A stretch of DNA of 64,000 bases from Escherichia coli. GTDB taxonomy: Bacteria; Pseudomonadota; Gammaproteobacteria; Enterobacterales; Enterobacteriaceae. Positions 40,565-53,505 of the stretch are shown piece after piece; the stretch's first letter is position 1; each line of letters opens with the position of its first letter. Position numbers and translations under genes: made by a program. Location: NCBI RefSeq assembly GCF_003018235.1, contig NZ_CP027437.1. One strand, written 5' to 3'. The notes beneath the pieces were generated by a model, which was given only the letters and a program-made list of their open reading frames with translations, had not been told where the DNA came from and ran no database searches.

Positions 40565-42024
40565 TGAAAAAATTACTGCGTCTTTTTTTCCCGCTCTCGC
40601 TGCGGGTACGTTTTCTGTTAGCAACGGCAGCAGTAGTATTGGTGCTTTCGCTTGCCTACGGAATGGTTGCGCTGATCGGTTATAGCGTCAGTTTCGATAA
40701 AACCACGTTTCGGCTGTTACGTGGCGAGAGCAATCTGTTCTATACCCTTGCGAAGTGGGAAAACAATAAGTTGCATGTCGAGTTACCCGAAAATATCGAC
40801 AAGCAAAGCCCCACTATGACGCTAATTTATGATGAGAACGGGCAGCTTTTATGGGCGCAACGTGACGTGCCCTGGCTGATGAAGATGATCCAGCCTGACT
40901 GGCTGAAATCGAATGGTTTTCATGAAATTGAAGCGGATGTTAACGATACCAGCCTCTTGCTGAGTGGAGATCATTCGATACAGCAACAGTTGCAGGAAGT
41001 GCGGGAAGATGATGACGACGCGGAGATGACCCACTCGGTGGCGGTAAACGTCTACCCGGCAACATCGCGGATGCCAAAGTTGACCATTGTGGTGGTGGAT
41101 ACCATTCCGGTGGAGCTAAAAAGTTCCTATATGGTCTGGAGCTGGTTTATCTATGTGCTCTCAGCCAATCTGCTGTTAGTGATCCCGCTGCTGTGGGTCG
41201 CCGCCTGGTGGAGTTTACGCCCCATCGAAGCCCTGGCAAAAGAAGTCCGCGAACTGGAAGAACATAACCGCGAATTGCTCAATCCAGCCACAACGCGAGA
41301 ACTGACCAGTCTGGTACGAAACCTGAACCGATTGTTAAAAAGTGAACGCGAACGTTACGACAAATACCGTACGACGCTCACCGACCTGACCCATAGTCTG
41401 AAAACGCCACTGGCGGTGCTGCAAAGTACGCTGCGTTCTCTGCGTAGTGAAAAGATGAGCGTCAGTGATGCTGAACCGGTAATGCTGGAGCAAATCAGCC
41501 GCATTTCACAGCAAATTGGCTACTACCTGCATCGTGCCAGTATGCGCGGCGGGACATTGCTCAGCCGCGAGCTGCATCCGGTCGCCCCACTGCTGGACAA
41601 TCTCACCTCGGCGCTGAACAAAGTGTATCAACGCAAAGGGGTCAATATCTCTCTCGATATTTCGCCAGAGATCAGCTTTGTCGGTGAGCAGAACGATTTT
41701 GTCGAGGTGATGGGCAACGTGCTGGATAATGCCTGTAAATATTGCCTCGAGTTTGTCGAAATATCTGCAAGGCAAACCGACGAGCATCTCTATATTGTGG
41801 TCGAGGATGATGGCCCCGGTATTCCATTAAGCAAGCGAGAGGTCATTTTCGACCGTGGTCAACGGGTTGATACTTTACGCCCTGGGCAAGGTGTAGGGCT
41901 GGCGGTAGCCCGCGAAATCACCGAGCAATATGAGGGTAAAATCGTCGCCGGAGAGAGCATGCTGGGCGGTGCGCGGATGGAGGTGATTTTTGGTCGCCAG
42001 CATTCTGCGCCGAAAGATGAATAA
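40564..42024 (+). CDS. phoQ: Sensor histidine kinase PhoQ
   Basis: 486-aa ORF with two TM segments, H-box and ATPase domain; overlaps the phoP stop. Confidence 0.95.
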
Positions 42025-42110
42025 ATATGTCCTTTTATCATTAAACACAACCAACCAATTGATTTAATTAAATAAATCTCACTACAGAAAGTGCCAAAAA
42101 TCGCAAATTG

Positions 42111-42131
42111 ACTACACCATTAACTACACCG
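42111..42131. repeat. 21-bp direct repeat ACTACACCATTAACTACACCG (candidate att core, left copy)
   Basis: Perfect copy at 53485..53505; imperfect similarity continues for ~40 bp to the right of both copies. Confidence 0.7.
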
Positions 42132-42286
42132 TTCGGTGCACTGTATGAAACAACGTGGAACAAATAGACACAAGAAATATATGGGCGGGTAATTTATCTA
42201 TGTGAAAGCGTGCCGACTAATAGGGCGTTAATGTCGATATGGGGATCCCCATATCGGGAACCATACCGGAATTTTTGCCAGGTTAA

Positions 42287-42409
42287 ATGTTAACCGCTGC
42301 CCTGTTAACATTTTTACCAAAAAGGTAGTTAACATTTTTTGCACGCAACCATATGAATCATAAAGACAAAATCAACAACAACGCTTCATCAGGCAGTTAA
42401 CATGTTAAC
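42287..42409. promoter_or_regulatory. Cluster of GTTAACAT / ATGTTAAC half-sites, including the 14-bp palindrome GTTAACATGTTAAC (candidate iterons/operators or packaging site)
   Basis: Motif at 42287..42294, 42304..42311, 42328..42335 and 42396..42409 in a gene-free ~0.8-kb terminal region. Confidence 0.4.
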
Positions 42410-42833
42410 TACTACAAAACGGTAATTTTTTCTCTGCGTGAGAGTGGGCGCGGTGTCCGAATTGTTCGTTGTTCGTGGCTAACCGCTCCCCCCCCTATAC
42501 CGGATTTTTTTCCGGTTAATCTTTAATCAGGCTGGTGGGGGTTACATACCCTTGATCACCGTAATGATGATTCAGGTATGCACCTTTCCCCCCGATGGGG
42601 TAAAAGCATCAACCGTAACGGTAATATCTGCCTTGATGGTCTGCGTGGTCATTATGACCATTCAGCCAATGACCTTAATCAGAATTTTTCGCTAAAAAAT
42701 GATGTTGGCCACGTCGTCCGGAAAGCACAAAATCCCGTCGATTTTTAATTAACGGTTAAACCGCCTTTTTGTCACGGTGTGTCACTGGTTGCCACTCACC
42801 GTCACGATGTCCGCTCGCCTGGCTGTAAATTAA

Positions 42834-42852
42834 ACTACGAAAATTTCGTAGT
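42834..42852. promoter_or_regulatory. 19-bp perfect palindrome ACTACGAAAATTTCGTAGT (followed by GGGACTACAAGTCCC palindrome)
   Basis: Read directly; lies upstream of the left-end hypothetical gene. Confidence 0.4.
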
Positions 42853-42925
42853 TGTGAGGGACTACAAGTCCCGCGCAAATTTCCCCCGGTCCCCTCAAAT
42901 TGAGGTTGCCGGAAATATCAACCAG

Positions 42926-43207
42926 TTACCGCCGTAACCGCTCCAGCTTCTTCCAGTGGTACGTAATTTTCTCTTTCTCCCGGTACATCTCAACGCGGCG
43001 ATTGTAGGCCAGCATTTCCAGAACGCGGATCCGTATGTCGCGCATATCTACATCGTTAAGCTGGATACCATCACGGCGCATCACCTCAGCAACCACACGC
43101 GCATAATTTTCAGCGGTCACGCTGTCCGGCTGCGTTGCCTGTTCGTCAGCCTGCTGGCTGATTCCTGCAACGCGGTGGATTAATCGCAGTATTTCGGCTT
43201 CTGTCAT
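42926..43207 (-). CDS. Hypothetical protein (93 aa)
   Basis: ORF 42926..43219; probable start ATG 43207 (MTEAEILRLIHRVAG...) with G-rich SD. Confidence 0.5.
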   Translation of the reverse strand: MTEAEILRLIHRVAGISQQADEQATQPDSVTAENYARVVAEVMRRDGIQLNDVDMRDIRIRVLEMLAYNRRVEMYREKEKITYHWKKLERLRR

Positions 43208-43241
43208 TGTGCCCCCCATCGTTCTAATCGTCTGGTGTCGT

Positions 43242-43295
43242 CGGGTCCTTCCTGGAATTATGGCCCGTTACGGGGCGGCGACCTCGCGGTTTTTC
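43242..43295. repeat. Inverted repeat, left arm (terminator-like hairpin plus T-run)
   Basis: Reverse complement of 43887..43940; the inner 32 bp are identical. Confidence 0.75.
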
Positions 43296-43521
43296 ACTAT
43301 TTATGAGATTTTTTAGGGGGTGGTTGTTGTTTAATTGTTTGTCATATCTATTTGATAACTAAGTAAAAATAGAGAGCAATACAACAACCTGATAGTGTTT
43401 TTTGATGCTACAAATAAAAAAAATGCTAATTGAATCAAATAGTTTTACAAAAATACGTGGTTGTTGTATTGCGTATTTGATGGCGTAACAGAAAGTGATT
43501 TTGAACTTTGCTGTTCTGTGA

Positions 43522-43731
43522 CTACTGATTGTTCCATGCTGGCGCGGCGAACGCTTCGGCATGACGCCCCCCAGCCAGAAAACCAGCCATTTTATTTCGT
43601 GCTTTGCTCACATCTTCCGGTGAGTAGCCGTAAATCTGTAAACCTTCATTGAATCGATGTTCTGTTTCTTCACTTGAGTACTCGTCGCTCTCCGATGAAA
43701 TCAGCCTGGCAACTTCAGTCTGCGTAGCCAC
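43522..43731 (-). CDS. Hypothetical acidic protein (69 aa)
   Basis: ORF inside the inverted-repeat-bounded cassette, downstream of CATGTCCGG repeats. Confidence 0.4.
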   Translation of the reverse strand: MATQTEVARLISSESDEYSSEETEHRFNEGLQIYGYSPEDVSKARNKMAGFLAGGRHAEAFAAPAWNNQ

Positions 43732-43753
43732 TCCTCACCTCACAATCACGACA

Positions 43754-43860
43754 AAACCGGTCATGTCCGGTTTACATGTCTATTTTTTGCGCATGTCCGG
43801 TTCATGGAAAGCCTATTTTTATATTTTTCATATAGTTAACTTGCAGAGAAACCGGACATG
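43754..43860. promoter_or_regulatory. Three copies of the CATGTCCGGTT(T) motif, including the 20-bp palindrome AAACCGGTCATGTCCGGTTT (candidate operators)
   Basis: 43754..43773, 43792..43806 and 43848..43860 (inverted). Confidence 0.45.
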
Positions 43861-43886
43861 GATCCCGGAAAATTTTCATAAATAGC

Positions 43887-43940
43887 GAAAAACCGCGAGG
43901 TCGCCGCCCCGTAACGGGTCCATATGCCGGAAAGGACCCG
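43887..43940. repeat. Inverted repeat, right arm; acts as minus-strand intrinsic terminator of the capsid operon
   Basis: Hairpins followed (on the minus strand) by a T-run, 30 bp after the stop of the 137-aa gene. Confidence 0.75.
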
Positions 43941-43969
43941 TAAAAAAGCCGGATTTCTCCGGCCTTGTC

Positions 43970-44383
43970 TCAGATGGTTTTCAGTATGCGATCGATGTCG
44001 CCGTCATCGCCCGGGTTTCTGCCATCGTATGCCATGCCAGCTGATACGGCTTGCGGGCTGTGCATGTCCATAAAGTTTTCAAAGGCTGCGGTAAGCTCTG
44101 GTGCAACCTTCAGGCGTTCCTGCTCTATGGTCATGCTAAGGATGCTTTTAGCCGTACCAACATCGATACAAGGCACGTTTGCCATTGCACGTAACAGCGG
44201 CTGATAGTCGCCAGATTCATCAAGCGCCATAATCGCATCAGAGCGCGGCTTGTCCTTCTCTTCCAGGCTGTTAAGTTGATATACGGCCTCGTAGGTTGAT
44301 AAACCTCTGTCAGCCATTGCCCGCGCTTCGGCCTTAAATTTACTCGCCAGCGGTAGCGTCATGATGCTTTCATTCGTTGCCAT
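43970..44383 (-). CDS. Hypothetical protein (137 aa), capsid-module associated
   Basis: ORF directly downstream of the decoration-like gene. Confidence 0.5.
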   Translation of the reverse strand: MATNESIMTLPLASKFKAEARAMADRGLSTYEAVYQLNSLEEKDKPRSDAIMALDESGDYQPLLRAMANVPCIDVGTAKSILSMTIEQERLKVAPELTAAFENFMDMHSPQAVSAGMAYDGRNPGDDGDIDRILKTI

Positions 44384-44395
44384 CGTTACCCCTGC

Positions 44396-44731
44396 TTATC
44401 GCGCCAGCGGCTGAACGGATACGCCAGAACCCGCAAAGGCGGCGCATTTTTTCGCGTCGGTGTCGACGCTCTCAGGCCAGTTTACAGCGGCGATATTGAA
44501 TATCCCCGCCTTGTAGCACTGTGCTGATTTCTGCTTTGACGTGTCCACGGGGTACGACGTCAGGTAAACAGCCTTGCCCGATTCCTGACCATCCCACGGT
44601 TTAAACTCGCCATTGTCCGCCAGCATCAGCGGGGTAAATTCCTGAATAACGCCAGCATCAGCGGCAAAATGTACCAGCGTCGTGGCGACCTGCTGACTGC
44701 CTGCAAATAACTCAATGTATGGAGTGTCCAT
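44396..44731 (-). CDS. Lambda gpD-like head decoration protein
   Basis: 111 aa; aligns to recalled lambda gpD (TPLMLxxxxxxxxxWDG..., xYKxGxF, WPE, KKxxAFAGxxxS). Confidence 0.7.
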   Translation of the reverse strand: MDTPYIELFAGSQQVATTLVHFAADAGVIQEFTPLMLADNGEFKPWDGQESGKAVYLTSYPVDTSKQKSAQCYKAGIFNIAAVNWPESVDTDAKKCAAFAGSGVSVQPLAR

Positions 44732-44742
44732 AGAATTCCCCG

Positions 44743-45798
44743 TTAACCAATTTTGACGGTAACAAATTTGCGAATATCTGCCGGTACCGGCTGCGGTGCG
44801 CTGTGTGTCTGCACGTACTCAATCGCCGGATCGCCGTCTTCAATCCAGTTTTTCGGGTAGAACATGTTTTGCGTTGCGCCCGTTCTTACCGCTTCCTGAT
44901 CCATAATCGCACCATAGGCCACCAGCCCTTTATTGTTGGTGTTACCCAGGACCAGCAAATCAGGCTCAAGGAAATATTTTTCGGTGCCGTCGCTGTCAGT
45001 GTATTTGCCGGAATAGACGATAAGGGCCAGATCACCAAGATAGCCTTTAAAGCTCACCACTTCGCCCAGGTTTTTACAGGCCAGTTCGGCGGCGGATTCT
45101 GAACCACGGGAAAGATCGTACAGCTCACGGAATTTTTTAAAGCTGCGTAATGTGCGCCATACCTCAGCGCCCATAATCATGACGTTTGCGGGGCAACCAG
45201 CCTGATCAGCATAAAGCTCGATGTCATAGATTGGGTCGTGCATGTCTTTATCCTGCTCGGACCATTTTTTACCATTGGCCTGCTCTATGATGCAGTTTTC
45301 CGGTATTTTCCAGTCGATTTCATAGCGTTCTATGCCTTCGCCCTCAATGATGTTTTTTCCGGTCGTTACCGCATTCACCGCCAGCCATTCCACGCGTGCC
45401 TTAATGGCGTTTATCTGGCGGCGCACGTTGCCAGTAATCAGGCGCATGCGTCGGTATGTAGGGTCGTTAAGCTGTGCCGGATCTTCTCCAGCCATGCGCA
45501 TGATGGTTTTTGTTGGATCGATTTCATGCTTTGGCTTCATGTAGCCGGGTTTAATCGTGCTGGTTTCGTACCCTTTATCGCGCTGGACATGGCTACCCAC
45601 CATAGGCGAACAGAACGCTGACATCGTAACCTCTTCAATGTCCAGGGTGTCCAGCATGATGCTTTGGGTGTTGAAGGTCGCCACGTTCGGGAAAAACAGC
45701 GTGGTAAACAGCGGACTGAATTTAAATTCAGCAATATCCCCGCGATTCAGGTACGCGAAAAGCTGGTTAGTGTTAAGTGCCGTTGCTTTTCCTGCCAT
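44743..45798 (-). CDS. Lambda gpE-like major capsid protein
   Basis: 351 aa; conserved blocks KFxFxPLF, TPGYxKPKHE, DPxYRRxR, YPKNWxxxGDP relative to recalled lambda gpE. Confidence 0.8.
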   Translation of the reverse strand: MAGKATALNTNQLFAYLNRGDIAEFKFSPLFTTLFFPNVATFNTQSIMLDTLDIEEVTMSAFCSPMVGSHVQRDKGYETSTIKPGYMKPKHEIDPTKTIMRMAGEDPAQLNDPTYRRMRLITGNVRRQINAIKARVEWLAVNAVTTGKNIIEGEGIERYEIDWKIPENCIIEQANGKKWSEQDKDMHDPIYDIELYADQAGCPANVMIMGAEVWRTLRSFKKFRELYDLSRGSESAAELACKNLGEVVSFKGYLGDLALIVYSGKYTDSDGTEKYFLEPDLLVLGNTNNKGLVAYGAIMDQEAVRTGATQNMFYPKNWIEDGDPAIEYVQTHSAPQPVPADIRKFVTVKIG

Positions 45799-46004
45799 TA
45801 TTCACCCCCATGAGTCTGATTCATGCCCAGCGCCGCGCGTAAATAGGCGCGTACCTGCCAGCCTGTTGACGGCTCAACCATCGCCAGCGGATCAAGTCCT
45901 GCCGCAATGCCTGCTTTTACGTTCTGCTGGTGGCGTTCCTTGAGCGCCTCCACGATGTCGGGGCTTATGTACACCGAAACACCGCCTTTTTTCTCTTCTG
46001 CCAT
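45798..46004 (-). CDS. Hypothetical protein (68 aa) upstream of the capsid gene
   Basis: ORF with start/stop overlap with the capsid gene. Confidence 0.4.
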   Translation of the reverse strand: MAEEKKGGVSVYISPDIVEALKERHQQNVKAGIAAGLDPLAMVEPSTGWQVRAYLRAALGMNQTHGGE

Positions 46005-46166
46005 TGGTTGAAATTCCTCTTTAACAAAAAAAACATAACTGGATGAAAATCCAGTTGTGATTATAATTGTGATTGCACTTTGTGCAACGATATTGAGTTA
46101 TATTGCAAATTATGAAATGATTATCCCGATCATGTGTGTCAGTGCACCAAAAAAAACTCATATGCA

Positions 46167-46207
46167 AAAGCCCGATAAGACCCCTCTGACCTTATCGGGC
46201 TTTTTTA
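46167..46207. terminator. Bidirectional intrinsic terminator between replication and capsid modules
   Basis: Stem gcccgataag/cttatcgggc with TTTTTT on the plus strand and a T-run on the minus strand. Confidence 0.55.
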
Positions 46208-46409
46208 TCTGTCGGCAAAGACATCGAACAAAAATTAATCACAATCATCATCTTTTTTTCATCAATGCGATTAAAAACAATAAATTACGCTCATGATGAT
46301 GATGACGATAAAACCACAAAAATGCGCTTTTTTCCGCGCCACCCGTCCCGTGGATGGTCCCGCCAGCCAGGAGGACCCATAAAAAAGCCGGATTGCTCCG
46401 GCTCTGCTC

Positions 46410-46682
46410 TCACTTCTGCGGGTAGTTGCGCCATATTGTTTTCCCTATACCATCTATCCCCATTTGTTTTTCAGTGCGATCAACCGACCGTTTCAGCGCG
46501 CCAAAACCATCCGGCGGCTCCGGTGGCCTCTGTGCCTTCCTGGAACATTCCAGCCGTCGCATTGCCACCTGTGCGCGTTCCTTGTCTGTCTCCACCAGCT
46601 GCATGACTTCACCCCATCGCGCGGCCGCCCTCCGGTAAAAGCCTTTCGACTCGAGTTCCTCCGCTATGCGGTCATGTACCAT
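46410..46682 (-). CDS. PerC-like transcriptional activator
   Basis: ORF 46410..46802; probable start ATG 46682 (strong SD, 10 nt after the SSB stop); motif GFYRRAAARWGEVM resembles the PerC RGLWRRAADLW motif. Confidence 0.5.
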   Translation of the reverse strand: MVHDRIAEELESKGFYRRAAARWGEVMQLVETDKERAQVAMRRLECSRKAQRPPEPPDGFGALKRSVDRTEKQMGIDGIGKTIWRNYPQK

Positions 46683-46692
46683 CCTCACCCCC

Positions 46693-47103
46693 TCAGAACG
46701 GAATACCATCACCGTAAGGGTCATCGCCTCCCGCTGGTGGCTGATTACCCTGTGTGCCTGTGGTTGTGCGTCGGCTCCCGCCAGGACGTGCCGTACGGGC
46801 ACTGATTACGCTGTCTGCAATGACCTGATAACCCTGCCGCGTTTCGCCGTTCTGTCCGGTCCACTGGCTTACCTGCATGTTACCCGCCACGCTCACCAGT
46901 TCGCCTTTGTGGTGTTTTGCCAGTGCGTCGGCCTGTCTGCCAAACGCCAGGACGGATAACCACATCGTCGCCGTTCCGTCATCTGTCTGGCTGCATGGCA
47001 GGGGAACCGCCATACTCGCCATCGCCATTTGTGTCCCTTTGCTGGTGGTCTTTAACTGCGGGTCAGCCACCAGCCGTCCGTAAGCCGCTATCTGTGCTGT
47101 CAT
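46693..47103 (-). CDS. Single-stranded DNA-binding protein (SSB-like)
   Basis: 136 aa; OB-fold-like N-terminus and C-terminal acidic tail ...DDPYGDGIPF (SSB signature DDDIPF). Confidence 0.7.
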   Translation of the reverse strand: MTAQIAAYGRLVADPQLKTTSKGTQMAMASMAVPLPCSQTDDGTATMWLSVLAFGRQADALAKHHKGELVSVAGNMQVSQWTGQNGETRQGYQVIADSVISARTARPGGSRRTTTGTQGNQPPAGGDDPYGDGIPF

Positions 47104-47342
47104 GCTGTCTGCTCTCCGGTTTTAACGTTGATGGTTGTTACCTGTTCCGCTTCGGCAATCTCCCGTTCTGTCAGCGTGGCAAAGTTTGCGGCCGCTGTGG
47201 TCATGAATGCGCTTATCAGTTCTGGATGTTCCTTCGCGTATCCTTCCCGCGTGTGGCGGTCGATGATTTTTATCGCCACCCTCAGCCAGTGTTCTGTAAG
47301 GTCAATGGCGCGGTGATCTGTCTTTTTGTGGCTTACCTTCAT
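47100..47342 (-). CDS. Hypothetical protein (80 aa)
   Basis: 4-nt overlap with the SSB start. Confidence 0.45.
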   Translation of the reverse strand: MKVSHKKTDHRAIDLTEHWLRVAIKIIDRHTREGYAKEHPELISAFMTTAAANFATLTEREIAEAEQVTTINVKTGEQTA

Positions 47343-47345
47343 GAT

Positions 47346-47669
47346 TTACTCCAGGGTACCGCTATTGCTGCAGTCGTTAACCGGATACCAGGCAAATACC
47401 CATGACTCACCGCAGTGAACAAACTTCTTATCTGGCAGATAAAGGCACTCGAACATTCCCTCATCAGGACTATGCGGACTCACGCCAAGCTCACTGGTCA
47501 GCACGGGTAAGATTTCGCGGTAAGTATCCCCAGTGCCGAAATGGTTGACCTCACAAAGCGCCCATGCAGCAATTGGGCTATACCATTCCGTGCCGTCGTC
47601 GTCTTTGAACTTCGCCCACCAGCCAGGAAGGGCGGTTGATAAGCTCAGTGTTTCAATTTCAGATTTCAT
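47346..47669 (-). CDS. Hypothetical protein (about 107 aa)
   Basis: ORF 47346..47714; start placed at MKSEIETL. Confidence 0.45.
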   Translation of the reverse strand: MKSEIETLSLSTALPGWWAKFKDDDGTEWYSPIAAWALCEVNHFGTGDTYREILPVLTSELGVSPHSPDEGMFECLYLPDKKFVHCGESWVFAWYPVNDCSNSGTLE

Positions 47670-47915
47670 AAATTCACCTTCTGTATTTTGTCCTGCTGTT
47701 CGATTTTTATTCATTACTCACCACTCCTCACTTTTACTCCTCACTTTTTAAGTTGCCTCACTTCGTCTCACTTGAGATTTTCGTGTTTTCTATTAATTTG
47801 TTTTATAAGATTTTTTTCACTCCTCACTTTTGAGGATGTATACAGGTGAGAAAGTGAGTAATTGTGTTAATATTTTGTAAAAACCTCACCGTTACTCACT
47901 TTTGCTACTCACTTT

Positions 47916-49325
47916 TTACAGTGGTCCTACATCATCACCATCAATGTAAATCACGGCGTCTTTTTCCAGTTTGGCTAACCATCGCCGCATATTTTTCACG
48001 TCATACCCAAGCCGTTTCATGTCATCACGTAACAGCGCAATAGTGCACTTGTCGCCGTTCTGTGTGCGTGAACGTATGCACCCCCATAGCGCGGTATGGT
48101 TTTCCGTCTTGTTGCCTGCCTCCTCGATGCGCTCCAGTTCAACAGGAGGACGCGGCTTATCCACCACCACCAGCGACGTGATTAATTCGCCGTCAGCGTC
48201 GGTAAAAAGCTCCACTACCCGCAAATCGTAGGCGGCTTCTTTGAGTTCCTCTGCGTCCTTCATTTTTGTGCATGAGATAACCAGGGCTTCGCTTCCTGCG
48301 TCCTCTCTGCGTATCCGGTATTCAGCGTCCAGTGATGCACGGAATGCACTGGAACCACGCGCGCCCTTTGTTTCATCTTTGCCGGAATGGTGAACCACCA
48401 GCACCGTGGACCCTGTGCGTCGTTTCAGTTCGTCACATCCACGGATAAACGCCCCCATGTCACGGGAGTCATTTTCATCATTGCCGCCAAAGCAACGCGC
48501 CAGCGTATCCAGAATAATCATTCGAACAGGTTTACCCGTTTCCCGCTCCACCTGGCTGGCTGCGATAACCATTTCATCAACATCAAGCGGGGCCGCCGGA
48601 AAGACCGGACGGTTTACCAGATACAGATTTTTCACCTGTACATCGTGCACAACCTCCCAGGCTTTTATGCGACGCGGAACGCCTATACCACCTTCACCAA
48701 CCACATAGAGAACAGAACCATGTGCAACCCTGCGGCCTCCCCAGTGGCGGCCCGTTGAAATGTGACACGCCCACGAACCAGCAAGAAACGATTTATAGGA
48801 TCCGCTCGCTCCGTATATGCTGCACAGCGACGCCGCCGGAATAATGCCCTTAACCACGTAATCCAGTTGCGTGTCATATCCGGTAGATCCAACGCTCATC
48901 GGTAGCGTGGTGTTTCGTTGGGGGTTTTTTGCCATTACCAGGCTTTCCCCTCTCTCCCATGTCTCCCGCAACCGTGGTAGCTGGTCGGTCCATTTCTCCA
49001 GCAATTCGAAATTTTCAGAAAGCAGTCGCGCTTCCCTGACTCCGGCAATCGCCAGTTTCGTCGCGATGGTTAGCAACTGCTCTTCGTCAATATTTCCGGC
49101 GCGTATCACTGTGACCCTGTGCCGCCCCTCATCAACAATTTGCAGATTATCCAGTTCGCTTAACTGATAACGGCCCAGGTAAACGGGAGGCGTCGGGTCT
49201 CCCGCCTTTTTGGCCTGTGCAACGATGTAATGCTCTGCAAATGAGTGAGCATCAACACCCGCGAAAATAATCGCGTCGGTGTACTTATCTTTCGGTAATA
49301 GTTTTACGTTCGGTGCCAGTTTCAT
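47916..49325 (-). CDS. Replication protein with RecA-fold (RepA/AAA_25-type) helicase core, Pri-Rep-like
   Basis: 469 aa; Walker A-like GASGSYKS, Walker B-like MIILDTLAR, SGKDETKGARGSSA motif typical of RepA-type helicases of satellites and plasmids. Confidence 0.7.
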   Translation of the reverse strand: MKLAPNVKLLPKDKYTDAIIFAGVDAHSFAEHYIVAQAKKAGDPTPPVYLGRYQLSELDNLQIVDEGRHRVTVIRAGNIDEEQLLTIATKLAIAGVREARLLSENFELLEKWTDQLPRLRETWERGESLVMAKNPQRNTTLPMSVGSTGYDTQLDYVVKGIIPAASLCSIYGASGSYKSFLAGSWACHISTGRHWGGRRVAHGSVLYVVGEGGIGVPRRIKAWEVVHDVQVKNLYLVNRPVFPAAPLDVDEMVIAASQVERETGKPVRMIILDTLARCFGGNDENDSRDMGAFIRGCDELKRRTGSTVLVVHHSGKDETKGARGSSAFRASLDAEYRIRREDAGSEALVISCTKMKDAEELKEAAYDLRVVELFTDADGELITSLVVVDKPRPPVELERIEEAGNKTENHTALWGCIRSRTQNGDKCTIALLRDDMKRLGYDVKNMRRWLAKLEKDAVIYIDGDDVGPL

Positions 49326-49621
49326 TTTTTACCCCTGAATCCGTTAATCATGTTTTTCATCTTCTGAATATTGGCGCGGGCCTTCTCCCTGCTGGTGGGC
49401 TGGCTGCGTTGCGCTGCCTGTACCAGAGAAAAATCACGCCGGAACTGATAAACAGGCATCACGCAGTCATATTCGTAGCCTTCACGGCGGTAGGTTACGC
49501 GCCGTTCCTCCACGCCCTTGATCATTACCGTGCCGCCGTACTGGTCGCGGTAAATATCCCCGCGCATGAATTTAGTGCGAGTTTTGCCGCTGGCAGTTAA
49601 GCCAGAATATTTAAGTTTCAT
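49322..49621 (-). CDS. Hypothetical basic protein (99 aa)
   Basis: 4-nt overlap with the replication gene start. Confidence 0.45.
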   Translation of the reverse strand: MKLKYSGLTASGKTRTKFMRGDIYRDQYGGTVMIKGVEERRVTYRREGYEYDCVMPVYQFRRDFSLVQAAQRSQPTSREKARANIQKMKNMINGFRGKK

Positions 49622-49626
49622 TATTT

Positions 49627-50109
49627 TTATTCTCCGGTGTGGGGCGTTTTATTCTGTTCGCGTAATAACTCTTTTTCTCTTAAATTGAATTCAGCTACGT
49701 AATCGGCATAATCAGCGGTAATATTCAGTACATCCACTCCCGTTGCTTTATATTCTTTCATACCAAGTAAGAAAAAAGATGCCCTTATCAGTTCCGATAT
49801 TGATGAAAGCGCATCAGTCGCATCATCGGATAATCCTGAAAATTCCTGTTTCAGGGCATTAAAACGATCATCACGCATAACCCCCCCATTTTCACAATCA
49901 GCAATCAGGATAGCTTTGGCCTCATTCAGTGCCATATCAGCGGTAAGCTGTGCGTATGCCAGTGAATGCGGGATTATTGCCCCGGTATATTCCGTCTCTC
50001 TGGTAATGTGTTTTTCTGCGGTTGCTGCCGTGCATGAAATATCAATCAGCGCGTGCATTAGCGTTCTGATAGCTTCGGCGGCTGCGTCCGGACGGATGTT
50101 ATTGCACAT
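49627..50109 (-). CDS. Hypothetical protein (160 aa)
   Basis: ORF in the leftward operon. Confidence 0.45.
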   Translation of the reverse strand: MCNNIRPDAAAEAIRTLMHALIDISCTAATAEKHITRETEYTGAIIPHSLAYAQLTADMALNEAKAILIADCENGGVMRDDRFNALKQEFSGLSDDATDALSSISELIRASFFLLGMKEYKATGVDVLNITADYADYVAEFNLREKELLREQNKTPHTGE

Positions 50110-50716
50110 GTATCACCCCCTGACGAATACGGGCGGCGAATACAGCAACACAACCAGACGGGCAACGGCTACGCGCTTCGCGTTCCGTCCAGGCGGTGAC
50201 GTGGATGATTTGGGATTCTGACGCGCAAAAGATGATAAAGCGCCAGATAAAGGCAGTTTGAGAATGTACGAGGGTAGGGATAGTAGCCATGTTGGCAGCC
50301 TCCTTTATCGTTGGGATAACCCCACCGCCGGAGGTGGTAAGCTCGCTGGCGGTGGACTGTACGGAGTTACCACAACTGGCGATAAAGGAAACCAGCCCGA
50401 CCGAAGTCGGCCCCGTACAGCCCACCATTGTAAAGGTGTGCGTGTGCGCCGATACAAAAAAAGACGCGTGCGGCGTCTGTATCGCCTTTATCTCCAGCGG
50501 GGTGGTAATCCCGGCACCCGTTTTATGAGGTGCACGGGAATCATAGCCATTTCCACCAGTGGCGATCAACTGGTTTTTCTGGCGAGCTTCCTGTTCGCTG
50601 GTGGCCTCAATGGTAATCACGCGCGGTTGTGCCGTGCTCAGGGCGATAAAACGCCAGATGTATTTATTCAGGTTGTACGAGCCCCGCCCTTGCGGGTGTG
50701 TGGTATGATTTCTCAT
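50099..50716 (-). CDS. Uncertain ORF spanning a tandemly duplicated ~0.4-kb module
   Basis: Frame open from ATG 50716 (GAGG SD) to stop 50099; a second SD plus ATG at 50290 inside; DNA-level paralogy between ~50221..50340 and ~50619..50750. Confidence 0.3.
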   Translation of the reverse strand: MRNHTTHPQGRGSYNLNKYIWRFIALSTAQPRVITIEATSEQEARQKNQLIATGGNGYDSRAPHKTGAGITTPLEIKAIQTPHASFFVSAHTHTFTMVGCTGPTSVGLVSFIASCGNSVQSTASELTTSGGGVIPTIKEAANMATIPTLVHSQTAFIWRFIIFCASESQIIHVTAWTEREARSRCPSGCVAVFAARIRQGVIHVQ

Positions 50717-50813
50717 AGCTACCTCGATACTCTGGTTATCGTTGGTGGTTAGACGCCCTGCATGTGTTGCGAGCACTGCGGGGCGTTGCTTAATTTGAGT
50801 AACACCACTCAAA

Positions 50814-50895
50814 CTGTGCGCACAGATTAAAATTATGTATGCGCACACATCAATACTTAACATCTCGTTTTTTTTGCTGTATTGTGTGCGCCCAT
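50814..50895. promoter_or_regulatory. Operator cluster between divergent operons: palindrome CTGTGCGCACAG plus two related TGTGCGC sites
   Basis: 50814..50825 perfect 12-bp palindrome; 50835..50850 near-palindrome; about 50883..50893 third copy. Confidence 0.5.
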
Positions 50896-50921
50896 AAAGT
50901 CCATTTAAGTAAGGTGCATCA

Positions 50922-51119
50922 ATGTCTAGCGGTAACACAAACAACAAATCAGCAAAGAAAAATATTCGATTCCCACATGAGCTTATAGATGGAATTGATG
51001 CCAGCGTTGAACAAGAAAAATTAACTAATCCTAGTGCTAATTTTTCCGCATGGGTCTTGGATGCCTGTGGACGCAAATTAAAATATGAACAGCGCCGCAA
51101 GGCCAAAGAATCAGAATAA
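50922..51119 (+). CDS. Small ribbon-helix-helix-type DNA-binding protein (candidate island repressor)
   Basis: 65 aa; KKNIRFPHELIDGIDA...FSAWVLDACGRKL pattern; divergent from the replication operon. Confidence 0.5.
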   Translation: MSSGNTNNKSAKKNIRFPHELIDGIDASVEQEKLTNPSANFSAWVLDACGRKLKYEQRRKAKESE

Positions 51120-51176
51120 TTACTATCAGCGCCGTGGTGTGAGGTACTCCGGCGCATTGCTTTACAGGTACACACA

Positions 51177-51401
51177 ATGACCAAAGGCACATCATCACCG
51201 GAAAACGGCGAAATTACGCCAACATATGAAATTATCCGGCAAAGGCAGTCAGAAGCCTGCGCCAGACTTGAGGAAGAACTAACCAGAACAAAAATACCAC
51301 CAGCGCCGCGCTTAGCGCCACCAGAAAAATTTGCCCTTGAAGATTTTGTCGAGAAATACCCACGGCGGCTTAAATCTGGTAAAAACCGCCCGCCAGGCTG
51401 A
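51177..51401 (+). CDS. Hypothetical protein (74 aa)
   Basis: ORF downstream of the RHH gene. Confidence 0.4.
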   Translation: MTKGTSSPENGEITPTYEIIRQRQSEACARLEEELTRTKIPPAPRLAPPEKFALEDFVEKYPRRLKSGKNRPPG

Positions 51402-51665
51402 TAGCATTGTCCACCAGCAATAGAACGGTTATCATGCTCTGGCTTATGTTTGGGATCACATACACATAAGGTGCAGCGGGTTAATTGTTCAGAAAGGCGG
51501 TTCCATTTCGGGGCCGCTTTTTTTATGCCTGAAAAACCCCAATTTTGTTGTTTTCCAGTCTCACCAGGGCGAACGAATCCCCGCCCACATTCGGGCGCAT
51601 ATTCAATCTTCATGGTTATATCTCTGTATTAGTGGATGTGTGGCGGCTGCGTGCCGCCAGCGTGA

Positions 51666-51854
51666 TTAATGAACTGCCTTGCAGCTATCCTTCCAGGCCA
51701 GAACCTCGGATAAAGACCAGCCAACGGAACGACCGCCAAGTTTACGACGTGATGGGAATTGTCCGGCCTTTTCCAGGCGGTAGCGGCATGAGCGGCTAAG
51801 GCCTGTTAGCTTTTCGCATTCTTTTTCACGTATAAACCGATCAGTGCTTAACAC
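51666..51854 (-). CDS. AlpA-family excisionase / transcriptional activator
   Basis: 62 aa; LTGLSRSCRYRLEKAGQFPSRRKLGGRSVGWSLSEVLAW matches the AlpA helix-turn-helix pattern. Confidence 0.7.
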   Translation of the reverse strand: MLSTDRFIREKECEKLTGLSRSCRYRLEKAGQFPSRRKLGGRSVGWSLSEVLAWKDSCKAVH

Positions 51855-52228
51855 TATTGCCCCCTTTCGTTTCTTAAAGAGTTATTTCGTGTTCTATTGC
51901 GTTGGGATGTGTCTGATTGTGTCAGGATGATTCAGAGTTGGCAAATGTTGAGGTCGTATGGTTTACAGAAAGAGGAACAATCAGGATAAAATCATTTAAA
52001 TTCATGTTAATACAAAGGCATAAAATCTCGTTTTATGCCTTTTTTCTCACGTGTTAAAGCGTTATTCGCTAATGTATAAAAAACCAGTCACACAAATAAA
52101 ATCAGTCACTTATAAACCTGCGTACTTTTTCGCCTCTTGTTCGTGGTTGTTCCACGTTGTTTCACATTGTTCGCCGTTGTATCTGTGTGCTTATCCAGTA
52201 TGCGCATACTGAAAAAACACGAAAAAAA

Positions 52229-53476
52229 TTATTTTCTTCTGGCTGCTGGTAGTGCGGTTACGTTTTCTTGTGTTCCCGCCAGTATCCCTAACCGCTCCGT
52301 CCACATATCCAGCGCATTGCGTTTAGCATCCAGATAACGGGAATGATTATAAACTCGCTGCATTCCTGGCATCTGGTGGCCTGTAAGCTGCTCCACGACG
52401 TGAGGATCCACGCCTAAATCGTTCAGCATCGTTGTAAAGGTGCGCCGGATGTCATGTAGTGACCAGTGAGGGTGATTTAGCCTCCTGTGCGCTAATCTGC
52501 CGTACTGCGACACGCTTGTTTCCTGTTTCACTTCCCCCAGCAATAAGCCCGTGTTCCTGTTCTGCTCCACCAGCTGCGTGACGAACGGCAGTATTGCTTC
52601 CGGTATGGGCCGGAATATTGCCACCTTCGTTTTGCTGTGTTCTTTCGGCACGGTCCAGAGCATTTCGGTAAAATCCCACTCTCTGATCTCCGATAACCTC
52701 AGTTCTACCGTCCGGCATCCGAACACAATCAGGAGGCGGATTAACGCGATGTAGTAAGGGGAAAATATTTTTTTGTCCAGTGCCTGCAATAATTCGCCCA
52801 GTTCTTTGGTGCTTAAGACACGCTCGCTTATATCCGGTTTTTTCCCAACGTCCGCCACACTCATATCATCAAGAACGTTGCTGATTGCATAGCGCCGCCT
52901 CCTGCAGAACTTAAGCGCCTGTTTGCACGTCTGTAGCAAGAATCCGGCAGTAACAGGCGTTCGCTTTGCCACCTGGTCAAAACAGGCCAGCCAGTGCCGT
53001 AGCTCGCATTTATCCAGCGGCATAGCACCAATGTGCTGTATTACGTGATTATTAAGGCGCTTTTTCAGGGCGGCATAATCCACGCGATTTTCCTTTGCGT
53101 ACGACTCAAGCCAGTAGGTGAGCGCATCGCCAACCGTTACCGGCTTTAACGCTTCCTGTACGGTGTAATTCATTTCATGACGTGGATTTTTCCCCTCTGC
53201 CAGCCATGCGCGACACTGGGCGGCTTTTTCCCTGGCTGATTTCAGGCTCAGATCAGGATAATTTCCCAGCTTAATGCGTTCCGGTGGTGCCCCCCTTCCC
53301 GTTCCGGCCCTGTAAGTGAAATACCAGGTTAAAAGGCCACTGGTTGAATGCCTGACGCTCAGGTTTCCACCGTCATTAAGAAAGGCTGTTTTTTGGGCGG
53401 GTGTGCCGTTGATTTTCCTCAGCTGTGTATCGCTCAGTTTGTTAAGTGCTCTGCTCATAATTTTGATTCCGGTCAT
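52229..53476 (-). CDS. Tyrosine site-specific integrase (P4-type)
   Basis: ORF 52229..53479; R...HxxR...Y catalytic-region motifs (HDIRRTF, GHQMPGMQRVYNHSRY); adjacent to the right repeat. Confidence 0.8.
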   Translation of the reverse strand: MTGIKIMSRALNKLSDTQLRKINGTPAQKTAFLNDGGNLSVRHSTSGLLTWYFTYRAGTGRGAPPERIKLGNYPDLSLKSAREKAAQCRAWLAEGKNPRHEMNYTVQEALKPVTVGDALTYWLESYAKENRVDYAALKKRLNNHVIQHIGAMPLDKCELRHWLACFDQVAKRTPVTAGFLLQTCKQALKFCRRRRYAISNVLDDMSVADVGKKPDISERVLSTKELGELLQALDKKIFSPYYIALIRLLIVFGCRTVELRLSEIREWDFTEMLWTVPKEHSKTKVAIFRPIPEAILPFVTQLVEQNRNTGLLLGEVKQETSVSQYGRLAHRRLNHPHWSLHDIRRTFTTMLNDLGVDPHVVEQLTGHQMPGMQRVYNHSRYLDAKRNALDMWTERLGILAGTQENVTALPAARRK

Positions 53477-53484
53477 CACAATTA

Positions 53485-53505
53485 ACTACACCATTAACTA
53501 CACCG
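53485..53505. repeat. 21-bp direct repeat ACTACACCATTAACTACACCG (candidate att core, right copy)
   Basis: Identical to 42111..42131; preceded by an extra ATTAACTACACC unit. Confidence 0.7.

Follow-up and report, generated by a model that had tools for sequence, protein, structure and literature searches.

A conserved lambda-type capsid, decoration, and scaffold-domain cassette in an EcCICFT073-type phage satellite of Escherichia coli

A Morphogenesis Cassette in a Known Type of Satellite

In the 64,000-nucleotide (nt) stretch of the Escherichia coli chromosome analyzed here (contig NZ_CP027437.1; hereafter the window), four tightly packed minus-strand genes at 43970-46004 encode proteins of 68, 351, 111, and 137 amino acids (aa). 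We show that they are the conserved late (morphogenesis) cassette of a Gram-negative phage-inducible chromosomal island (PICI) of the EcCICFT073 type, an assignment that follows from the phoQ/roxA insertion site and the gene order, both of which are those of EcCICFT073. This cassette is present in roughly one of every nine complete E. coli genomes, yet the sole genetic tests of it gave no phenotype. It is an already described satellite feature and not a new system. Fillol-Salom et al. 2018 (PMC6092414) reported that in EcCICFT073 c1499 encodes a putative capsid protein and that the product of c1500 is a head decoration protein. Of 29 reference Gram-negative PICIs surveyed later, 21 have a major capsid gene, which helper-assisted transfer can do without (PMC10111431), and our literature search found no later paper giving a c1499/c1500-type cassette a function. 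Our additions are modest, namely the Nu3-type scaffold homology, the selection data, the regulatory anatomy, two exact cosN sites, and a truncated packaging-redirection gene, but they ease the testing of why most Gram-negative PICIs retain a capsid gene. From the purifying selection, the Nu3-type scaffold domain, and the organization of the cassette as an insulated unit with a conserved promoter, we argue that it does something outside the reach of the published assays. Its genes are as follows.

43970-44383, minus strand: 137-aa protein, equivalent of c1501, homologous to the lambdoid scaffold/protease Nu3/gpC over the ~85 C-terminal residues of the latter
44396-44731, minus strand: gpD/SHP-type head decoration protein, 111 aa, ortholog of c1500
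44743-45798, minus strand: lambda gpE-type major capsid protein, 351 aa, ortholog of c1499
45798-46004, minus strand: conserved 68-aa protein heading the cassette (PHROG 3255, E=5e-38)

An earlier reading made from the letters of the window (the sequence-only reading) had placed all four genes exactly at 43970-46004, and had recognized in them a gpE-type and a gpD-type protein, in the order E then D, carried by a phage satellite. We reach the same result on each point: the order is the reverse of that in lambda, and also of that in phage PhiR12_2, and an integrase, AlpA, RepA, iterons, and att repeats lie around the pair. The term orphan module has to be dropped, as the cassette sits inside a complete 11.4-kb PICI of a known family. 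Nor is the pair flanked only by small unknown open reading frames (ORFs) and terminators; this is right for the 68-aa protein, which is unmatched, but the 137-aa protein is related to Nu3/gpC and two of the hairpins are cosN sites. Similarly, portal and protease are absent as proposed (as is the large terminase), whereas a scaffold, also held to be missing, is represented by the 137-aa gene.

Relationships of the Cassette Proteins

Database matches place the 351-aa protein in the HK97-fold gpE family. It covers positions 14-328 of the 329 in the Pfam model Phage_cap_E (PF03864; E=4.4e-50), matches PHROG 29 "major head protein" (E=1e-107), and aligns with lambda gpE over 328 residues at 43% identity with 2 gaps. 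Among solved structures, it matches PDB 3BQW, a "putative capsid protein of prophage" from CFT073 (~97% identity, E=9e-231), and the lambda gpE structure 7VI9 (E=4e-80); 3BQW has served both as the HK97-type representative of its Pfam family and as the molecular-replacement model for another phage capsid protein. The closest phage capsid proteins share 43-47% aa identity with it, 47% being the best value. The ATG of the capsid gene shares 1 nt with the stop codon of the 68-aa ORF. By the same kind of evidence the 111-aa product is a gpD-family cementing protein, with matches to Pfam HDPD (PF02924; E=2.3e-17), to PHROG 49 ("head decoration"), and to the structures of phage 21 SHP (1TD0, E=1.5e-13) and lambda gpD (1C5E, E=3.5e-9), its identity to gpD being 36% over 76 residues.

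Profile and pairwise alignments relate the 137-aa protein to Nu3/gpC solely through the C-terminal domain, of whose family it is a member. It falls within PHROG 1999 (E=2e-62), a family that residues 117-200 of lambda Nu3 also match (E=2.7e-26), and a further match is to PHROG 53, "head maturation protease", at the C terminus of its profile (E=6e-8). With BLASTP it aligns with residues 416-493 of the 501-aa PhiR12_2 C/Nu3 protein at 37% identity (E=4e-10), and weakly with residues 349-437 of lambda gpC. A deep search returned 9 matches among 1.84 billion representatives, and so the family is narrow; one of these, P0041 (195 aa, three Nu3-type repeats), bridges the 137-aa protein and Nu3, while another, P0042, was discarded as a repeat-protein artifact. 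The aligned part spans residues ~45-130, the N-terminal ~45 residues being unique. In Pfam searches neither an S49 protease domain nor any other domain was found in it, and the full-length Nu3 architecture is not present. Two other identities were rejected. Lambda FI, a DNA-packaging chaperone, is of like size and position, but neither it nor PhiR12_2 FI shows similarity, and "head-tail connector", the label given to some orthologs by the Prokaryotic Genome Annotation Pipeline (PGAP), is backed by neither Pfam nor PDB; profiles and BLAST link the protein to Nu3/gpC instead.

The 68-aa protein gave no significant match in Pfam, in PDB with phmmer, or in PDB with Foldseek, the latter yielding nothing at E<1. 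AlphaFold2 predicts a beta-alpha-alpha fold for it (predicted local distance difference test, pLDDT, 74). It could not be read as a ribbon-helix-helix protein (Pfam RHH_1 at E=5) or as lambda gpW (no alignment), and a profile hidden Markov model (HMM) of its family had no match among all lambda head proteins.

Distribution, Intactness, and Selection

At >90% nt identity the cassette is found in 597 of 5426 complete E. coli genomes, and in 591 it is full-length. In 80 related IMG/VR loci, the genes for the major capsid protein and the 68-aa protein are each intact in 79, the decoration gene in 77, and the 137-aa ORF in 68, most exceptions for the last being contig ends or variants. Mean pairwise ratios of nonsynonymous to synonymous substitution rates (dN/dS, omega) are 0.13 for the major capsid protein (69 alleles), 0.095 for the decoration protein, 0.24 for the 68-aa ORF, and 0.27 for the 137-aa ORF. 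Eight annotated loci agree, with low dN/dS at dS of up to ~1, and across sets omega lies at ~0.10-0.13 for the major capsid protein and ~0.27-0.32 for the 137-aa ORF. The cassette is under strong purifying selection (omega ~0.1).

When the cassette DNA was compared with phage records, the single match covered 47 nt of the query, at its cos end. Because of this, of the 47% ceiling on capsid identity to phages, and of the permuted gene order, we conclude that the cassette is an old satellite lineage, long separate from phages. Homologs of lambda A, B, and C occur in just 1-3 of the 80 related loci, and there outside the cassette.

The modules around it are more mobile. Some cassette-bearing islands have a primase and others a RepA helicase for replication. 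Likewise, some carry Rpp (redirecting phage packaging) and others a 180-aa lambda Nu1-like "terminase small subunit" (TerS), which is present in 39 of the 80 IMG/VR loci and also downstream of the same capsid cassette in L001, L006, L007, and L008. Since about half of the related islands thus carry a Nu1-like TerS replacing Rpp, the packaging module has been exchanged separately from the cassette. Among the related islands, L005 (NZ_CM143727.1, 4642748-4658249) is the most divergent, with 82% nt identity in the cassette; it adjoins a prophage tail-gene cluster (baseplate, tail fiber, and tail sheath genes), which may represent a helper-embedded configuration. This island has a shorter Nu3-like protein (115 aa) and no annotated PerC gene.

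Transcription Signals around the Cassette

The surroundings of the cassette contain the following elements.

43933-43963, minus strand: terminator-like hairpin and T-run closing the capsid operon (GCCGGAGAAATCCGGCTTTTTT)
46026-46130, minus strand: regulatory block upstream of the cassette
46166-46200, minus strand: strong intrinsic-terminator-like hairpin, 13-bp stem, -22.6 kcal/mol, z=-3.7, followed by UUUU
46372-46402, minus strand: terminator-like hairpin after the perC-like gene, upstream of the cassette promoter block

Within the regulatory block, a TATAAT at 46060-46065 is near-invariant in an alignment of 57 distinct upstream regions (7 regions were aligned first), and the same 57 sequences have in common a palindrome, TTGCA-N5-TGCAA, at 46072-46087 and a leader hairpin with a U-run at 46026-46059 (z-score -3.3). 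Including this leader hairpin, three hairpin/T-run elements lie upstream of the 68-aa gene, and the one at 46166-46200 is kept in related islands. The two 31-nt terminator-like copies at 43933-43963 and 46372-46402, one on each side of the cassette, are 94% identical. The putative promoter, operator, and terminator roles of these elements suggest that the cassette is transcribed as a separate unit, from a conserved promoter and between insulating terminators. A borrowed phage late promoter was considered and rejected, the upstream block having no meaningful match in 50,697 phage records.

What the Cassette May Do

The explanation that we consider best, and in which we place about half of our confidence, is that the cassette is a satellite-owned lambda-type shell kit, redundant with the gpE and gpD of the helper in laboratory tests. 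After a lambdoid helper induces the island, transcription of the operon would start at a promoter of its own, terminators separating it from the replication module. In the helper late phase the satellite proteins would form lambda-type, T=7-type shells on the helper portal, or join shells that are forming, with the 137-aa protein serving the diverged satellite capsid protein as a mini-scaffold, its cognate partner in the interior, and the gpD homolog cementing the expanded, full shell. Such shells would use the protease, terminase, head-completion proteins, and tails of the helper, and the helper terminase would cut and package DNA at the lambda-type cos of the island, redirected in intact islands by Rpp or by the Nu1-like TerS. 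The published lack of phenotype would then be due to redundancy with helper gpE and gpD. A scaffold domain and a cement protein of its own, beside a capsid protein 43-47% identical to those of phages, in our view favor a separate shell over occasional co-assembly or chance retention. The stricter proposition, in which the minimal kit (E-D-Nu3' plus the 68-aa protein) yields shells of the satellite's own major capsid protein on the helper portal, ordered by its mini-scaffold, cemented by its gpD, distinct in identity from those of the helper and with some helpers perhaps different in size, is unlikely on present evidence.

Several observations weigh against the shell-kit explanation, the most direct being genetic. 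Deletion of c1499 or c1500 neither relieved the interference with lambda nor altered transfer by the resident helper, c1499::cat islands continued to be transferred, at values from 1e3 (lambda) up to 1e6 (phage 80), and the DNA packaged with helper lambda was all of phage size (PMC6092414). Of the genes downstream of the replication origin (ori), each cloned singly, none but c1503 (rppA) was inhibitory to lambda (Fillol-Salom et al. 2019, PMC6739421). This clone was additionally tried on phages 80 and HK97, and plaques came back almost completely once c1503 was deleted (PMC6739421). The N-terminal two-thirds of Nu3 have no counterpart in the 137-aa protein, for which the single-sequence AlphaFold2 model (all-helical, pLDDT 40) is unreliable and unusable for fold search. 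Covariation in the leader hairpin is modest, with pair 4 mismatched in about half of the sequences, and promoter and terminators are predicted, from consensus and folding.

Three other explanations have to be considered. The cassette could be insurance, supplying capsid and cement when the helper copies are missing, interrupted, or blocked, as in PICIs of the helper-embedded kind (HE-PICIs) inserted in the helper E gene, with defective prophage helpers, or under host defenses triggered by the helper capsid protein. HE-PICIs most often integrate in helper gene E and nevertheless carry a capsid gene of their own, for which a back-up role has been proposed (PMC10111431), and in the present set the related locus L005 lies inside a prophage tail-gene cluster; the idea also fits strong purifying selection combined with no phenotype in the presence of intact helpers. 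However, most copies, including that of the window, are not embedded in a helper, and at 43-47% identity to helper capsid proteins the compatibility with helper portal, protease, and FI is uncertain. Complementation of this kind overlaps with the shell-kit explanation, the main difference being when the proteins matter, and we regard it as a doubtful though serious possibility. Loss of function is another matter. Were these genes the functionless remains of a late-gene cluster captured from a helper, or of a PICI that once formed capsids, the absence of a deletion phenotype (PMC6092414) would be expected, and the island of the window does hold one degraded gene, rpp. Against this stand a cassette intact in ~95% of 80 independent loci, dN/dS of ~0.1 with synonymous divergence reaching ~1, a conserved promoter and ribosome-binding region, a full-length gpE alignment with 2 gaps, and an ortholog soluble and ordered enough to crystallize (3BQW). 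The sequence-only reading had named decay as the finding that would undo it; the data contradict decay, to which we attach hardly any probability.

The last alternative is interference or redirection of capsid size; that reading had favored redirection of capsid size or identity, as a route different from P4 Sid or PICI Cpm-type remodeling. Here the major capsid, decoration, and truncated scaffold-domain proteins would act as poison or remodeling subunits against particular lambdoid phages, co-assembling with, or competing for, their capsid proteins, scaffold, or protease, and giving aberrant or small capsids. As a route it would not be new, given that the SaPIbov5 capsid homolog Ccm already yields small capsids, and PmCI172 likewise encodes a capsid homolog and makes small capsids (PMC6092414). 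In principle a lone C-terminal Nu3/gpC domain could compete with helper scaffold or protease for shell binding, and an 11.4-kb genome would presumably suit a shell much smaller than T=7. The EcCICFT073 experiments with lambda nevertheless run counter to it on each count, that is, in the phage-sized packaged DNA, the unrelieved interference of the c1499 and c1500 mutants (PMC6092414), and the restriction of inhibition to c1503 (PMC6739421). Nor did any of 9 island proteins match a defense family in PADLOC, a result on which we also discarded the idea of a defense system. We thus judge size redirection or interference quite improbable, while redirection of capsid identity by the cassette is possible. 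If the stricter proposition on the shell kit is true, its benefit would show only with helpers or host defenses outside those so far tried.

cos Sites and the Truncated rpp Gene

Downstream of the cassette lie the packaging signals and what is left of the packaging-redirection gene.

43273-43284, plus strand: cos site 2, exact lambda cosN GGGCGGCGACCT, with extended similarity to the lambda left end
43522-43731, minus strand: truncated rpp remnant, 69 aa
43864-43909, minus strand: cos site 1, cosN and adjacent sequence, with exact lambda cosN GGGCGGCGACCT at 43898-43909

The two cosN sites are inverted relative to each other and flank the rpp remnant. At cos site 1, 45 of the first 46 nt are those of the lambda left end, after which the sequences diverge where cosB lies. 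Both sites fold into terminator-like hairpins (43896-43911 and 43271-43286) and are scored as terminators by a simple terminator scan. EcCICFT073 likewise has two functional cos sites (PMC6092414).

The 69-aa remnant matches RppC (PDB 6HLK) solely at residues 83-126 and corresponds to residues 77-146 of the 146-aa protein of island L002, split over two frames by a 3' frameshift. It thus has no N-terminal winged helix-turn-helix DNA-binding domain (residues 1-64 in RppC). This truncated arrangement occurs in 2 of 5426 complete E. coli genomes. For the hijacking of packaging the island has two exact cosN sites and an rpp reduced to a remnant without its DNA-binding domain. RppA is essential for packaging and transfer of EcCICFT073 (PMC6739421), and because rpp is truncated the island copy of the window is probably impaired in packaging, its capsid cassette being intact. 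A GAGG-rich possible ribosome-binding site precedes the remnant. The 150 nt between remnant and cos (43713-43863) hold three CCGGACATG-like repeats, which may be cosB-type elements.

The Host Island

The island occupies 42106-53554 (11.4 kb), seated between phoQ and roxA. Its chromosomal flanks are on the plus strand, with hflD, purB, phoP, and phoQ ending at 42024 and roxA, pepT, and potABCD beginning at 53698. Its remaining features are as follows.

42106-42180: left direct repeat (att site), 75 nt, adjoining phoQ and pairing with 53480-53554
42926-43219, minus strand: conserved PICI ORF, 97 aa, final gene of the island (PHROG 1561, E=3e-54)
46410-46802, minus strand: PerC-family regulator gene (PHROG 994 and 10396; PGAP names orthologs "PerC family transcriptional regulator")
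46693-47103, minus strand: single-stranded DNA-binding protein (PHROG 44, E=3e-38)
47732-47923: putative PICI ori, three ~24-nt iterons spaced 83-85 nt apart, directly 3' of the RepA-family helicase gene
47916-49325, minus strand: RepA-family helicase/replication initiator, 469 aa (PGAP name of orthologs; weak RadA-type ATPase match)
51666-51854, minus strand: AlpA-family regulator (Pfam Phage_AlpA, E=5.6e-18)
52229-53479, minus strand: tyrosine integrase at the roxA-proximal end (NCBIfam integrase domain; PGAP names orthologs likewise)
53480-53554: right direct repeat (att site), pairing with 42106-42180

The first ~36 nt of the two 75-nt repeats are nearly identical, and the related islands L001 and L002 are flanked by the same repeat. 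AlpA and the neighboring integrase are both on the minus strand, as expected for a Gram-negative PICI. The iterons are likely the satellite replication origin, since their position agrees with that of the PICI ori described previously (PMC6092414). Neither lysis nor tail genes were found in the ORF inventory or in PHROG and NCBIfam scans of the island, whose size fits the 10-15 kb range of PICIs, and the ORF inventory and PHROG scans likewise gave no large terminase, portal, protease, or head-tail adaptor/connector gene of its own. The element thus has the testable defining features of a Gram-negative PICI, an intact packaging-redirection gene excepted.

In relatives the annotated PerC gene is shorter (~90 aa) than the ORF listed above, and 93-aa hypothetical genes occupy the position of the 97-aa ORF in CFT073 and other islands. 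Icd-like remnants are also present within the island. A 504-aa minus-strand ORF at 50099-51613 is almost certainly spurious, a reading frame that happens to stay open across two Icd-like segments (Icd being a host cell division inhibitor); in related islands this region consists of several small genes and pseudogenes, and a YlcI/YnfO-family ORF lies at 50922-51119 on the opposite strand. A tRNA integration site was rejected, as the window holds no tRNAs. So was a helper prophage in the low-GC stretch 9000-32400, which is instead core chromosome present in most E. coli. This stretch contains umuC, a minD-like gene, ycgH, ypjA-like autotransporters, hlyE, bluF, and pdeG, and the phage-family matches within it are to a UmuC-type polymerase, a ParA/MinD-like protein, and "tail fiber"-like autotransporters.

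Comparison with Known Systems

The nearest described relative is EcCICFT073, which serves as model for the Gram-negative PICIs and with which the island shares the roxA/phoQ site, a major capsid protein ~97% identical, two lambda-type cosN sites, and the order PerC, 68 aa, major capsid protein, decoration protein, 137 aa, rpp (144 aa in CFT073), and an ORF of ~93-97 aa. They differ in replication gene, a RepA-family helicase here and a primase in CFT073, in the block between cassette and perC, and in rpp, which here is cut to its 69-aa C-terminal remnant. Helper-dependent excision, replication, and high-frequency transfer have been shown experimentally, among islands of this type, only for EcCICFT073 (PMC6092414). 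Compared with the C/Nu3-D-E block of lambda, the cassette has a homologous shell protein, cement protein, and C-terminal scaffold domain, and the cosN sequence is identical. However, its order, E-D-Nu3', is permuted relative to both lambda and PhiR12_2, the closest phage relative, of Nu3/gpC it has no more than the final ~85 residues, and the 68-aa gene before E has no lambda counterpart. Protease domain, portal, terminase, W, FI, and FII, all part of lambda, are missing from the cassette.

In the satellite P4, Sid and Psu bind the outside of a helper-type shell, Psu being a decoration protein. The resemblance of Psu to the gpD homolog of the cassette is one of functional analogy. Neither Sid nor Psu is a homolog of capsid proteins, and the shells on which they act are P2 shells made by the helper. 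P4 and the E. coli PICIs have also been treated as unrelated in gene content (PMC6092414). Comparable, going by their description in the literature, are SaPIbov5 with Ccm and PmCI172, in which the satellite encodes a homolog of the helper major capsid protein; both give small capsids, whereas the EcCICFT073 ortholog did not do so with lambda (PMC6092414). With the capsid-forming PICIs (cf-PICIs, e.g., EcCIEDL933) the island has in common the int-alpA-rep type of backbone and a capsid protein of its own in a clade apart from phage homologs. The cf-PICIs, however, encode capsid, protease, portal, head-tail connectors, HNH, TerS, and the large terminase subunit (TerL), and make their own small capsids, while here we find shell, cement, and scaffold domain only; without TerL, portal, protease, and connectors, the island is not a cf-PICI. 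If the stricter proposition on the shell kit is true, these common PICIs would be an evolutionary and mechanistic intermediate between the classical PICIs, which steal whole capsids, and the cf-PICIs, which steal only tails.

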